From Candidatus Woesebacteria bacterium (lineage in GTDB: Bacteria; Patescibacteriota; Microgenomatia; UBA1400; UBA1396): a stretch of 64,000 nt of DNA. Below are positions 22,872 through 26,177 of this stretch, in pieces. The stretch's first letter is position 1. Each line of letters opens with the position of its first letter. The notes beneath the pieces were generated by a model. The model saw nothing but the letters and a program-made list of their open reading frames with translations, made no database searches and was not told where the DNA came from. The stretch spans positions 37,606-101,605 of the forward strand of contig JAJOJK010000002.1 of the NCBI GenBank assembly GCA_021208605.1, given 5' to 3'. The translations under genes were made by a program, and so were the position numbers.

Positions 22872-24530
22872 ATGAAAGAAAGAGTACGCTGGGCAAACAC
22901 TATGCAGATTCAAAAAAATATTTCATCACCGTTCACCACACAGGAAGAACTCCGCGCTGGTTTACTCTCAAGAATTCCGGAGAATCGCCGCGCTCAGTTC
23001 TTTTCTCCGGCTCCTCCAGGCACACTGACAGCTGAACTTCACGGCCTTGATGAAGGCGCTCTAGCCGCCGCCAAAAACCGCCTGCAAACAGCGATTGAAA
23101 AACAAGAAAAGGTCCTCATTTTTGGTGACTACGATTGTGACGGCGTAACCGCTACCGCGGTTCTCTGGGAAACATTGGCCGAAAGTGGACTGACTGCCCG
23201 ACCATTTCTCCCGCATCGTGAGCGTCATGGGTACGGACTTTCGGTGACCGCGTTAGAAGAGATTTTTTCCGAGTATCAGCCAGATCTGGTGGTCACTGTG
23301 GACAATGGCATTGTGGCTCACGAGGCATTCGCTTGGCTCAAAGAGAAAGGGGTCGATACTATTCTGACTGACCATCACACATCCGATGGTACTGTGCCAC
23401 CAGCTGACATTGTCGTGCACTCCACTCAGCTGGCTGGAGTCACCGTTGCCTGGATGCTTGCACATGCCCTCAATCCCGAATCTGCGGCCACTAAACTTGA
23501 TTACGCTGTGCTCGGAACACTGGCTGATCAGGTACCGCTGTACGGTGCCAATCGCAGTTTTGCGCTCCATGGCTTAGCGGCCTTACGAAATACTCAACGC
23601 AGAAGTCTTTTAGCGTTAGCCGAAGCAGCTGGCACCAGACTTTCCGAAGCGACTGCAGAAACAGTTCACTTTTTGCTCGCTCCACGCATTAACGCCATGG
23701 GTCGTCTGGGAGATGCGATGGATGCCTTACGCGCTCTGGTGTCCAAACAACCAGAACGGACCCATCAACTGGTGAAAGCGCTGCAAGAAACGAATCGCTC
23801 GCGTCAGGAACTGACTTCTGATTTGTATGAGGAGGTCATTTCTTCACTATCAGGAAAACACGAGCAGGAACATCTTGTGGTAGTCAGCGGAGAATTTCAT
23901 GAAGGCATTATCGGTTTACTAGCGAGCAAGATCGTTGATACTACTCATAAACCCGCCATTGTGATCTCCACTTTAGGGGAAACGGCCAAGGCCTCTGTGC
24001 GTTCGGTCCCAGGAGTAAATATTGTGGAATTCTTGCGCGACCAAGCTGAAAGCGTTCCGTACGTGGCTCTTGGCGGACATGCCATGGCTGCCGGGTTTTC
24101 TATTCCGCTTGATACGCTCGAAACTACACAACGGCATTTAGAAACCGCCGCCCGTGCTACTATTTCGCCTGATTTGTTGGTACCGAGTATTGAAGTGATT
24201 GGTGCACTGGATTGGTCACTCTTGCGAGGCGAAACTTTGCTGACATTACAAGAATTTGCTCCGTTTGGAGCTGGCAATGAAACACCGAGTTTCTTACTGG
24301 AAGACATTGAGATCCGCGACTATCGACCAGTTGGCCGGGACGGATCACATTGGCTTTTAACTCTTGCTGATCCCAGGAGCGGTCTCCCGACCAAAGCGAT
24401 CTACTTCCGCGCTGCCGAGAAAATAACCGAGCCACTCCATACGTATCGCCACGCTGTGGTCGAGCTTTCACCAAGCAACTACCGCGGCAAGGATGTTGAC
24501 ATTGTGGTTCGAGCGGTTTTAGCGGGTTGA
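22872..24530 (+). CDS. recJ: Single-stranded-DNA-specific exonuclease RecJ (DHH/DHHA1)
   Basis: Motifs IFGDYDCDGVTA, TVDNG, LTDHH and a GGH-containing DHHA1 region. The real start is probably the MQIQKN codon near 22902. Confidence 0.85.
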   Translation: MKERVRWANTMQIQKNISSPFTTQEELRAGLLSRIPENRRAQFFSPAPPGTLTAELHGLDEGALAAAKNRLQTAIEKQEKVLIFGDYDCDGVTATAVLWETLAESGLTARPFLPHRERHGYGLSVTALEEIFSEYQPDLVVTVDNGIVAHEAFAWLKEKGVDTILTDHHTSDGTVPPADIVVHSTQLAGVTVAWMLAHALNPESAATKLDYAVLGTLADQVPLYGANRSFALHGLAALRNTQRRSLLALAEAAGTRLSEATAETVHFLLAPRINAMGRLGDAMDALRALVSKQPERTHQLVKALQETNRSRQELTSDLYEEVISSLSGKHEQEHLVVVSGEFHEGIIGLLASKIVDTTHKPAIVISTLGETAKASVRSVPGVNIVEFLRDQAESVPYVALGGHAMAAGFSIPLDTLETTQRHLETAARATISPDLLVPSIEVIGALDWSLLRGETLLTLQEFAPFGAGNETPSFLLEDIEIRDYRPVGRDGSHWLLTLADPRSGLPTKAIYFRAAEKITEPLHTYRHAVVELSPSNYRGKDVDIVVRAVLAG

Positions 24531-24905
24531 GGCATTATCATTTCGATATTTGCCTGAAAAGTCCTCAGAACCATTGAGTGTCGTAACAAAAACTGGATTT
24601 AATTGTACGTCTGGTTGATATCCATGACAGTAGATAAACATTGCACTGTTTAAACCTAATAAGAGTTGTTTGTCTGATTCATTTGTAAAATCAAAATTAA
24701 CATCTTGAAAAGTAATAGTACTTATTTCTTGCGAAAGAACTCCAATTAATCTACAACTCATATGTCCTCTACTTGCAACTGTATCTACATAAGCTAATAC
24801 GAGACCCACGACAGGAAAATCTTCTCGTGTAATTCGTTTCATTTTGGCAATGTAATATAAATGGTCTTTTGATATCTCTCTCTTTTGTTCTTGTTCATAT
24901 GACAT
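24519..24905 (-). CDS. Hypothetical protein (128 aa) in an AT-rich segment, preceded by a terminator/antiterminator leader
   Basis: ORF with a strong SD (AGGAG) 7 nt before the ATG. No recognisable motif. Its 3' end overlaps recJ. Confidence 0.5.
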   Translation of the reverse strand: MSYEQEQKREISKDHLYYIAKMKRITREDFPVVGLVLAYVDTVASRGHMSCRLIGVLSQEISTITFQDVNFDFTNESDKQLLLGLNSAMFIYCHGYQPDVQLNPVFVTTLNGSEDFSGKYRNDNASTR

Positions 24906-24926
24906 TTCTTCTCCTTACTCCATAAA

Positions 24927-24955
24927 AAAACCCGGCGCTTGTGTCCGGGGTTTTG
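24927..24955 (-). terminator. Intrinsic terminator hairpin plus T7 tract immediately upstream of the 24519..24905 gene (attenuator-type expression platform)
   Basis: On the minus strand, CCCGG-acacaagcg-CCGGG is followed by TTTTTTT, ending about 20 nt before the RBS. The upstream tract AGCCGGGGT can pair alternatively with the 5' arm to form an antiterminator. Confidence 0.55.
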
Positions 24956-25180
24956 CTTTGGTTTATTCCTTTTTGTTAGGCTTTCGTCAGCATACCCCGG
25001 CTATTCCACGCAAATTGGCGGAGAGTAATAGTAAGAACCGGTGTATGGTACGTGTGGCGTAACATGAGAGCACTAGTATACGCGTTGTGGCTCATATTGC
25101 AAGATTGAGCCTGATTTCCTAAGAGTCATACAAAAAGTCCTGTTGCGCGGTCTGTAAGAAAACTGTCACAATGATCGACG
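24956..25180 (-). ncRNA. Candidate cis-regulatory leader (riboswitch or attenuator), class unknown
   Basis: A roughly 225-nt non-coding stretch lies between the dacA-like gene (plus strand) and the terminator hairpin. It contains no ORF of 60 aa or more and has mutually exclusive terminator and antiterminator pairings. Confidence 0.35.
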
Positions 25181-25181
25181 T

Positions 25182-26177
25182 ATGGAATCTCTCCAGCGAC
25201 TGCGTCAATATTTGTGGCTTTTTCTCTTGTGGTTTGTGGTCGTTGGTATTGGCGTTATCGGTTCTTTTTGGGAATATTGCCAGGAGAAAAACCTGCCCGT
25301 AACCGTAGCTCCAGCCGCTGAAACACTGTTGACACCAGAAATTACTCTGCCAGCACTTGATTCAGTAGCTACTCCGCCGGCGTACACCGCGCAATCAGTG
25401 TGGCTGTATGACCGGAATTCTGGAAGCGTGCTCTATGAAGATAACGCCCATACCGCTACTTCGGTGGCTTCACTTGCTAAGCTTATGACAGCTCTGGTGA
25501 GTTACGAAGAGTTTTCTCTCGATGATAGTGTTCCCATTGGAACTTCTGCCGCTGCCTTAGGAAACCGTGCTAAATTCTTCTCTTCAGATGTTTTCTCGGT
25601 ATACGATCTCCTCCATGCCATGCTCATTTTCTCGGCAAACGACGCCGCAGAAGCCCTCAGTCGAGCCTACCCAGGCGACATGGATGCCTTTGTCCAGGCC
25701 ATGAATGCACGAGCAGCTTCTCTCGGACTGACCAATACCCAGTTTTCCAACCCATCCGGGCTAGACCACTCCAATCAATACTCAACCGCTGCAGATATTG
25801 GTCGAATTGCCAACACGGTATTGGAAATTCCGCTTTTGTCCCAGATTGTATCGCAGCCAGTACAACAGATTCGCGAACAACGCACTGGCCGAATCGACAC
25901 TGTTTACACCACAAATGCCTTGCTCTATCGACATCCACGCTATCGCGGCATGAAAACAGGCACAACAGAAATGGCCGGCGAAAGCTTAGTGGTGCGTATA
26001 GTTCCTCCAGAAGACGATATCTTGCTTCTTGGCGCCTCCCCCTCTGCGCAAAGAGAGTCGGCATCCTACGACTTACTCCTCGTGATACTTGGGAGTGAAA
26101 ATCGCTTTGATGAAGCCGAACTTCTGACTGAGTGGGCTCTTGCCACGCTTCAACTACAGAATCAAGAGAATTTCTAG
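25182..26177 (+). CDS. D-alanyl-D-alanine carboxypeptidase (S11, PBP5-like)
   Basis: Motifs SLAKLMT (SxxK), SAND (SxN) and MKTGTT (KTG), with an N-terminal TM/signal. Confidence 0.8.
   Translation: MESLQRLRQYLWLFLLWFVVVGIGVIGSFWEYCQEKNLPVTVAPAAETLLTPEITLPALDSVATPPAYTAQSVWLYDRNSGSVLYEDNAHTATSVASLAKLMTALVSYEEFSLDDSVPIGTSAAALGNRAKFFSSDVFSVYDLLHAMLIFSANDAAEALSRAYPGDMDAFVQAMNARAASLGLTNTQFSNPSGLDHSNQYSTAADIGRIANTVLEIPLLSQIVSQPVQQIREQRTGRIDTVYTTNALLYRHPRYRGMKTGTTEMAGESLVVRIVPPEDDILLLGASPSAQRESASYDLLLVILGSENRFDEAELLTEWALATLQLQNQENF

Follow-up and report, generated by a model that had tools for sequence, protein, structure and literature searches.

In the classical amino-acid operon attenuators of Proteobacteria and Actinobacteria (trpL, hisL, leuL, pheL, thrL and ilvL), a short leader ORF is combined with mutually exclusive 2:3 and 3:4 helices, a hairpin lies inside the ORF, and the structural gene comes directly after the U-tract. 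The ORF carries a run of codons for one amino acid and stops before segment 2, and the genes under control encode biosynthetic enzymes. Leaderless leader peptides are found in Corynebacterium. In mycobacteria, leaderless short polycysteine ORFs have been documented as attenuators (bioRxiv 10.1101/834739). Leader-peptide attenuators of the erm, cat, tlrB/yxjB, vmlR and bmrCD types respond to translation inhibitors (e.g. PMC6851288), and in these an early ribosome stall frees the antiterminator. Terminating riboswitches, too, have an intrinsic terminator whose 5' arm can be taken up by a competing segment. In the literature that we searched, of which coverage was incomplete, no attenuator or other cis-regulatory RNA was described from CPR/Patescibacteria.

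Here we describe a leader from a Woesebacteria genome which, like the classical attenuators, has a short ORF with an internal hairpin and exclusive helices directly before a gene. We consider it probable that this leader is a ribosome-mediated (leader-peptide) transcription attenuator. In our reading it represents a new attenuator family, whose ORF is leaderless or nearly so and lacks a run of regulatory codons.

Sequences compared

The DNA analyzed, called the window, was a stretch of 64,000 nt from contig JAJOJK010000002.1 of Candidatus Woesebacteria bacterium (GCA_021208605.1), and the leader locus lies at 24906-25180 of it on the minus strand. Relatives were collected via homologues of the flanking D-Ala-D-Ala carboxypeptidase gene (dacA). 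Three assemblies, L001-L003, were identical to the window over this region and, with zero variation, were uninformative. Eleven additional distinct syntenic loci were obtained (L004, L015, L017-L023, L025 and L027), and DacA identity across the syntenic loci was 48-67%. The window and these 11 are referred to as the 12 syntenic loci; the 14 loci also include two distant ones, L005 and L008; and some analyses took the 11 loci that were aligned at that step. Because the sequences are related, all figures based on shuffles overstate independence. Metagenomes scanned with a DacA alignment gave no matches, and neither did those scanned with the leader DNA pattern.

The syntenic loci shared the gene order recJ, a minus-strand cassette, and divergent dacA. 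The cassette contained a gene of 117-134 aa, a gene of 40-63 aa, or both; the window had only the larger gene, and L019, L021, L022 and L027 had only the smaller one. In L026 the cassette was absent, and recJ and dacA were 4 nt apart.

Promoter and downstream gene

The features of the window locus are as follows.

25097 to 25102, minus strand: -35 hexamer TTGCAA of the predicted leader promoter (promoter scan)
25075 to 25080, minus strand: -10 hexamer TATACT (promoter scan)
24976 to 25065, minus strand: predicted leader ORF, 29 codons plus TAA (MLRHTYHTPVLTITLRQFAWNSRGMLTKA) (open-frame conservation, shuffles)
25001 to 25031, minus strand: P1 hairpin within the ORF, around a conserved CAA, core 25024-25005 (local folds)
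24989 to 25000, minus strand: segment 2, 5' strand of the predicted antiterminator (CCGGGGUAUGCU) (folds, covariation)
24959 to 24975, minus strand: A/C-rich spacer from the ORF stop codon to segment 3 (sequence)
24944 to 24958, minus strand: segment 3, 3' strand of the predicted antiterminator (AAGCAAAACCCCGGA), overlapping the 5' arm of the terminator
24924 to 24949, minus strand: intrinsic terminator (hairpin and T7, covariation)
24911 to 24916, minus strand: Shine-Dalgarno sequence AAGGAG of the putatively regulated gene (sequence)
24519 to 24905, minus strand: putatively regulated 128-aa gene (33% GC, no annotation match)

The original prediction had about 225 nt of non-coding RNA in front of the terminator. 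The promoter scan found a sigma-70-like promoter, TTGCAA-16-TATACT, at 25102..25075 on the minus strand, so the transcribed leader would be about 150 nt rather than 225 nt, and it contains the conserved 29-codon ORF at 25065..24976. Transcription probably starts about 7 nt downstream of the -10 box, around 25068-25066. The pattern TTGnnn, a spacer of 16-17 nt and TAnAAT/TAnACT was present in 12/12 syntenic loci and in L005 and L008, and the sequence of the spacer was variable. In all the syntenic loci the T-run ended 146-161 nt after the -10 box.

At the other end of the leader, the T-run had been placed about 20 nt before the Shine-Dalgarno sequence; in fact 8 nt separate it from that sequence (AGGAG, 24915-24911) and 18 nt from the start codon of the 128-aa ORF, an ATG at 24905 on the minus strand. 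In the window, the interval between the T-run and the Shine-Dalgarno sequence is too short to hold a promoter of its own. Across the loci, the Shine-Dalgarno sequence and start codon of the downstream gene were found 13-40 nt after the T-run with no promoter-like site, which suggests that the downstream genes depend on read-through. As had been stated, the 128-aa gene overlaps recJ convergently; the overlap with recJ (22872..24530) is 12 nt.

The 128-aa gene had been called an AT-rich orphan. Its protein has a diverged homologue at the same position in L004 (26% identity, E 9e-8), so it belongs to a fast-evolving, syntenic family and is not a strict orphan, although the searches found nothing outside that family. 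AT-richness of the downstream gene was specific to the window and L004. Profile searches of Pfam, PADLOC and PDB gave no function for the 128-aa protein or for the family of about 60 aa. The only PDB profile match, lambda CII (E 0.12), was at chance level and was rejected. When 1.8 billion representatives were searched with phmmer and 5.8 billion proteins with a profile, only family members came back, except for one match to a repetitive protein of 3926 aa. The AlphaFold2 model of the 128-aa protein had a pLDDT of 38 and no confident fold.

Terminator and antiterminator

The minus-strand sequence bears out the intrinsic terminator that had been predicted. It consists of CCCGG (24949-24945), a 9-nt loop (ACACAAGCG, 24944-24936), CCGGG (24935-24931) and T7 (24930-24924), and RNAfold gave the hairpin -8.8 to -9.6 kcal/mol. 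A generic terminator scan missed this hairpin, since the loop limit of the scan was 8. Terminator stems were 5-10 bp long with energies of -8.2 to -19.1 kcal/mol, and in 14/14 loci they ended 0-1 nt before a run of T5-8. Transcription would be expected to terminate at this hairpin.

The segment said to pair with the 5' arm of the terminator, AGCCGGGGT, is at 25002-24994 on the minus strand, and MFE folds of the window contained the pairing, with CCGGGGU.UGCU paired to AGCA..ACCCCGG. The duplex had an energy of -19.5 kcal/mol vs -7.7 +/- 2.5 for shuffles. Single-sequence fold z-scores of the window were weak (-0.75 and -1.5), and folding of 24906-25180 on either strand was uninformative (z -0.75 and -0.12). 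Any argument against chance must therefore come from the comparative data.

Segment 2 falls in codons 22-26 of the window leader ORF and was inside the ORF in all loci. Across the loci, duplexes between segments 2 and 3 had energies of -16.7 to -22.8 kcal/mol with a mean z of -3.0 vs shuffles, and 9/11 loci were at or below a fraction of 0.02 of the shuffles. When the transcript was cut before the 3' arm of the terminator, the MFE structure formed the 2:3 helix in 8/11 loci. The antiterminator helix was 7-12 bp long, and beyond its GGGG/CCCC core it was lineage-specific: GGGGUUGUGC/GCACAACCCC, GGGGCGC/GCGCCCC, CGGGGUG.GCUU/AAGC.CACCCCG and GGGGGUUUGU/ACAAACCCCC.

Covariation was counted on gapless alignments anchored on the core, because MAFFT and RNAalifold on whole leaders misaligned the arms and yielded only 3 trivial pairs. 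For the same reason, an nhmmer profile and a grammar scan took the place of a covariance model. The antiterminator scored 0.258 vs 0.157 for shuffles, and controls with a slid partner scored at most 0.101; the terminator scored 0.363 vs 0.078. In both cases 0/500 shuffles of these related sequences reached the observed score. The pair adjoining the antiterminator core was UA in 7 loci, CG in 3 and UG in 2, and was unpaired in none. Both helices use the same CCCC(GG) core. The data thus agree with the original prediction of a transcription-attenuation leader, in that a terminator and a competing antiterminator are conserved and covary across 12-14 loci.

The grammar scan required three elements: a -10 box, an ORF of 18-36 codons beginning with ATG, and a terminator 8-45 nt after the stop codon. 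Applied to the 64-kb window and all fetched loci on both strands (about 0.5 Mb), it returned family members only, which means zero background. This bears on the reading of the hairpin as an ordinary intergenic terminator, for example a bidirectional one serving recJ on the plus strand, with the upstream complementarity arising by chance. On the plus strand the hairpin is indeed followed by TTTTGCTTTGG, a terminator-like site was called there at 24945-24961, and the single-sequence z-scores are unremarkable. However, the recJ end is about 400 nt away with an opposite-strand gene between, and a run of T5-8 directly follows the stem on the minus strand in 14/14 loci, whereas plus-strand tails were not consistently T-rich. 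The upstream complementarity is also conserved and covarying, and the architecture had zero background. We regard this explanation as highly improbable.

Leader ORF and its spacing

Only about 12 columns of the leader were invariant, and the 5' half was not alignable between subgroups. The shared order was promoter, start codon, ORF, P1, G-run segment 2, stop codon, A/C-rich spacer, segment 3/terminator, T5-8 and Shine-Dalgarno sequence.

The window leader ATG lies 9 nt after the -10 box without a Shine-Dalgarno sequence. Across loci the start codon was 6-17 nt after the -10 box, again with no Shine-Dalgarno sequence; it was GTG in L017 and ATG in the other syntenic loci. Given the predicted start site, the leader mRNA would be leaderless or nearly so. 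In this lineage the start codon of dacA is preceded at 6-12 nt by a conserved TGnCACAAT and lacks a Shine-Dalgarno sequence, which makes leaderless initiation plausible. However, TACAAT-N6-11-ATG was not enriched in the window (4 matches vs 2.95 expected), so this argument is limited to dacA and does not extend to genes in general.

The ORF was 23-29 codons long in the 12 syntenic loci and 21-29 codons long when the distant loci were included. An ORF with ATG or GTG at most 20 nt from the -10 box and a stop codon between segments 2 and 3 was present in 12/12 syntenic loci, compared with a fraction of 0.05-0.13 for each locus in dinucleotide shuffles. The product of these chances over the 8 most divergent loci was 5e-9, to be read with the same overstatement of independence. 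The frame anchored on the conserved CAA was free of stops in 11/11 loci, and the other frames had stops in 8/11 and 6/11. The leader ORFs of the window, L004 and L015 aligned as 29 gapless codons; frame 0 had 6, 4 and 4 synonymous changes, and the other frames had 0-2.

The distance from the stop codon to the terminator core (C-run) was 27-34 nt in the 12 loci (sd 1.9). In contrast, the distance from the G-run to the stop codon (7-20 nt, sd 5.0) and that from the G-run to the C-run, which is the antiterminator loop (38-49 nt, sd 4.0), both drifted. The terminator therefore tracks the stop codon and not segment 2, and such a register is sensible only if a ribosome reads that codon. The placement of the ORF fits, in its geometry, a model in which the position of the ribosome would decide which helix forms. 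These data argue for translation of the leader ORF.

Codon-position entropy over the 11 aligned loci showed no three-periodicity (30.7/29.1/31.6). In the leader ORFs of the 12 syntenic loci, Gln was always encoded by CAA and Lys always by AAG, so part of the apparent peptide conservation is probably an RNA-level constraint from P1. The spacing from CAA to the G-run shifted by non-multiples of 3 among loci, and thus the tail of the ORF is read in different frames in different loci. The N- and C-terminal parts of the peptides were variable, and their composition resembled that of random sequence (Cys 5.1% vs a background of 0.5%; D/E depleted). The lack of periodicity, the fixed codons, the frame-shifting tail and the random-like composition together suggest that the act of translation matters, and not the peptide product.

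No tandem identical codons were found in any of the 14 leader peptides, and the codon run of the amino-acid operon subclass was thus lacking. Two candidates for a sensed codon were rejected. Cys residues were scattered, at 0-3 per peptide, with none in the peptide of the window, and their enrichment fits a random-codon composition. A single regulatory CAA (Gln) codon was dropped, as L005 and L008 have Lys there.

P1 was the only element upstream of segment 2. It is a hairpin of 4-9 bp, its local folds had a mean z of -1.73 and were negative in 11/12 loci, and its stem differed by locus (for example CUUCA/UGAAG, CCCUU/AAGGG and GUUCUC/GGGAAC). We consider P1 a candidate pause hairpin or segment-1 analogue; the long-range pairing of segments 1 and 2 had a mean z of only -1.07.

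The locus had been labeled riboswitch-like, and P1 with segment 2 could in principle be the sensor of a riboswitch or of a trans-factor attenuator, responding to a metabolite, a protein or a tRNA, with the ORF incidental. The terminator/antiterminator switch is real under this reading too, P1 is conserved with an invariant CAA (CAA never being CAG, nor AAG being AAA), and attenuator sensors are diverse and often unannotated (PMC2965389). At gathering score, neither the window nor any of 13 related loci matched an Rfam model, and even at E<=10 the window had only chance matches of 14-17 bits; the single leader-type one was Leu_leader, with 14.4 bits vs a threshold of 50. No aptamer-like or otherwise extended conserved core was found, the 5' half being unalignable between subgroups, and the CAA was replaced by AAA/AAG in L005 and L008. 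Such a sensor would also leave unexplained why an ATG or GTG lies 6-17 nt from the -10 box with an open frame through segment 2 in 12/12 loci, and why it is the stop codon, and not segment 2, to which the spacing of the terminator is fixed. The riboswitch label is therefore not supported for this locus, and we judge the wider reading, trans-acting factors included, quite unlikely.

Distant members

The nhmmer profile made from 11 leaders detected L027, which was absent from the model (E 1e-7). Its weaker matches were in L005, from a Parcubacteria-group bacterium, and in L008 (CP011212), both of them unrelated low-GC genomes. In both, the promoter is followed after 8 nt by an ORF with an ATG start, MLQANSTHSKFIWVILRKNERDCLVA in L005 and MSLITNYSHFFLVILRKNVAG in L008. 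The 2:3 helix and the terminator were present in both loci; the helix of L005 had an energy of -18.4 kcal/mol (z -4.8), and the distance from the stop codon to the core was 30 nt in L005 and 40 nt in L008. The two elements are 0.6-2.7 kb from aspS-dacA, and the genes downstream of them are unrelated to those of the Woesebacteria loci. All loci were fetched through dacA; of about 6 distant CPR-like dacA loci, 2 carried the element, which suggests a real linkage with the dacA neighbourhood.

The unit of promoter, ORF and terminator was far better conserved than the genes after it, which were of 40-63 aa, of 117-134 aa, both, or the unrelated ones of L005 and L008. This pattern could also fit a stand-alone small gene of about 150 nt, with a micro-protein of 21-29 aa, a small RNA or both as its product, and a leaky terminator giving constitutive read-through. 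Trans-acting small RNAs and peptides derived from leaders are known (rnTrpL/peTrpL; PMC6614838, PMC7298713), and the block V-I-L-R-K-N, in which L005 and L008 differed only at third positions, would agree with a selected peptide. However, a stand-alone gene gives no reason for a covarying helix of 7-12 bp that competes with its own terminator, or for the constraint on the spacing from stop codon to terminator. The random-like composition with variable N- and C-terminal parts, and the change of frame in the ORF tail between loci, also speak against a micro-protein. We therefore hold a stand-alone gene to be unlikely.

Proposed mechanism

A ribosome-mediated attenuator would work as follows. The promoter at 25102..25075 would start a leader of about 150 nt, with the ATG of the 29-codon ORF within its first few nt. 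Segment 2, in the 3' part of the ORF, could pair with segment 3 (AGCA..ACCCCGG), which comprises the 5' flank and the 5' arm of the terminator, and the resulting 2:3 antiterminator would exclude the terminator hairpin. If the lead ribosome had reached segment 2, or sat on the stop codon, which precedes the terminator core by about 30 nt, while RNA polymerase made segments 3 and 4, the antiterminator would be blocked, the 3:4 terminator would form, and transcription would end at the T7 run. If the ribosome were held up or stalled within about the first 15 codons, or had not initiated, segment 2 would be free to capture segment 3, and polymerase would read through into the 128-aa gene. P1 is probably a pause hairpin or a segment-1 element that couples ribosome and polymerase. 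In three loci (the window, L023 and L025) the GGGG core would lie outside the stretch physically covered by a ribosome at the stop codon, and the block of the antiterminator in these loci would thus rely on an assumed steric exclusion.

The absence of a run of identical codons makes it more likely that the leader senses the general status of translation or a specific stall, and less likely that it senses how much of a single amino acid is available.

A more far-reaching reading, which we put forward only tentatively and as a whole, is that the window holds the founding member of a CPR-specific class of leaderless micro-ORF attenuators. Its conserved mid-ORF core (H..F..I.L-R-Q/K and P1) might arrest the ribosome specifically in response to a signal, or report global translation capacity, and might switch on fast-evolving small proteins, possibly with a role in trans for the peptide or for the terminated RNA of 150 nt, and the class might have been kept from Woesebacteria to Parcubacteria-like genomes, always in the dacA neighbourhood.

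CPR bacteria have tiny genomes with few recognisable regulators, so a conserved switch coupled to translation would join a very short list of regulatory devices defined in them. If the attenuator model is true, it would be indirect evidence for transcription-translation coupling and for leaderless initiation in CPR. Conservation is stronger in the element than in the genes it would control, and the element stays beside dacA across large distances; it could thus serve as a handle on the function of the downstream orphan small proteins.

Comparison with known systems

Terminating riboswitches resemble this locus in their expression platform, where a competing segment can capture the 5' arm of the intrinsic terminator. 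Unlike them, the Woesebacteria leader has no aptamer, no Rfam match and no conserved structure upstream of P1, and a conserved ORF stands in the place of the sensor.

The attenuators that respond to translation inhibitors are closer in logic. They also do without an amino-acid run, and their output follows translation status, as we propose here. In contrast to theirs, the genes putatively regulated here are no recognisable resistance determinants, and the leader has no known arrest motif.

In the mycobacterial and Corynebacterium leaders a polycistronic transcript begins with a short ORF that lacks a Shine-Dalgarno sequence and whose translation controls downstream genes, and with its predicted start site the leader here would be alike. 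However, the mycobacterial type has consecutive Cys codons, whereas the Cys codons here are scattered, or lacking as in the window. The present family further differs in its CPR/Patescibacteria host and in its explicit, conserved pair of intrinsic terminator and antiterminator.

The classical attenuators share the overall layout described above. The conserved mid-ORF codons of the Woesebacteria leader lie 16-23 nt before segment 2, as do the control codons of trpL. The differences are several. The leader here has no codon run for one amino acid and no Shine-Dalgarno sequence, it starts 6-17 nt from the -10 box, and its 1:2 pairing is weakly supported. Its ORF runs through segment 2 and stops 7-20 nt beyond it, whereas the classical ORF stops before that segment. 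The genes after it encode small proteins without a detectable family instead of biosynthetic enzymes, it matches no leader in Rfam, and Rfam has no model for the element. As the design itself is already known, what this locus would add is not a new principle but a new family of attenuators in a new phylum.

Genes downstream of the leader

The gene that the leader is proposed to regulate, which encodes 128 aa in the window, is AT-rich in the window and in its syntenic relative L004; its GC content in these two is 33-37%, against about 50% for the genome. The regulated gene of four other relatives (L017, L020, L023, and L025) is not AT-rich.

Window, 24519-24905, minus: AT-rich regulated gene
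L004, 3172-3549, minus: AT-rich regulated gene

A phmmer search of 1.8 billion representatives with the window 128-aa protein gave one odd match, to the 3926-aa protein P0056 (E 1.5e-16, 38% identity), which aligned in 16 repeated stretches to an N-terminal segment of 24 residues (residues 9-32) of the window protein. This similarity could reflect a common repeat motif or a low-complexity likeness.

Relatives carry a gene of 40-63 aa immediately 3' of the leader terminator. This gene was absent from the window, in which its place is taken by the 128-aa gene, 18 nt past the T-run. A Pfam search with the 40-63-aa gene product gave no match, and its sole conserved feature was a C-terminal LPxRYLKKxIFTP-like motif.

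40-63-aa gene:
L004, 3566-3733, minus
L015, 3062-3244, minus
L017, 3063-3254, minus
L018, 179-367, minus
L019, 3098-3289, minus
L027, 2089-2271, minus

The L004 record (CAYUUK010000005.1) is titled 'uncultured Pseudomonadales bacterium'. Comparison with the Woesebacteria window showed full synteny (CCA-adding enzyme, recJ, cassette, dacA, and gltX) and 64% identity between the DacA proteins. A wrong label or a binning error is probable for this record.

Start region of dacA

In the window, the conserved extended -10 box of dacA, TGTCACAAT (25164-25172, plus), was followed 9 nt downstream by the ATG, with no Shine-Dalgarno sequence.

Window, 25164-25184, plus: dacA extended -10 box and start region

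The arrangement TGnCA(C/G)AAT, then 6-12 nt, then the start codon was found for dacA in nine of the 12 loci. In L015 and L018 the motif overlaps the ATG chosen by the gene caller, and therefore the true start is probably an ATG further downstream. No motif of this type was found in the 60 nt inspected for L019 dacA. The dacA mRNA is probably leaderless.

A locus without the cassette, and distant leader units

The entire cassette was missing from the relative L026, whose DacA was 49% identical, and only 4 nt separate the recJ stop from the dacA start. The cassette is therefore dispensable, or has been gained or lost. Two genes downstream of dacA, this locus encodes a Y1 transposase of the IS200/IS605 type.

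L026, 2496-2501: recJ stop/dacA start junction

Copies of the leader unit, with its promoter, micro-ORF, antiterminator, and terminator, were also present in two distant loci, L005 (a Parcubacteria-group bacterium) and L008 (CP011212).

L005, 1129-1306, minus: distant leader unit
L008, 1646-1811, plus: distant leader unit

Both belong to low-GC, CPR-like genomes, and the genes downstream of them are unrelated. Between the two micro-ORFs, the V-I-L-R-K-N codons vary at third positions only. Both units lie close to aspS-dacA. These observations suggest that the leader unit represents a far wider family tied to the dacA neighbourhood.
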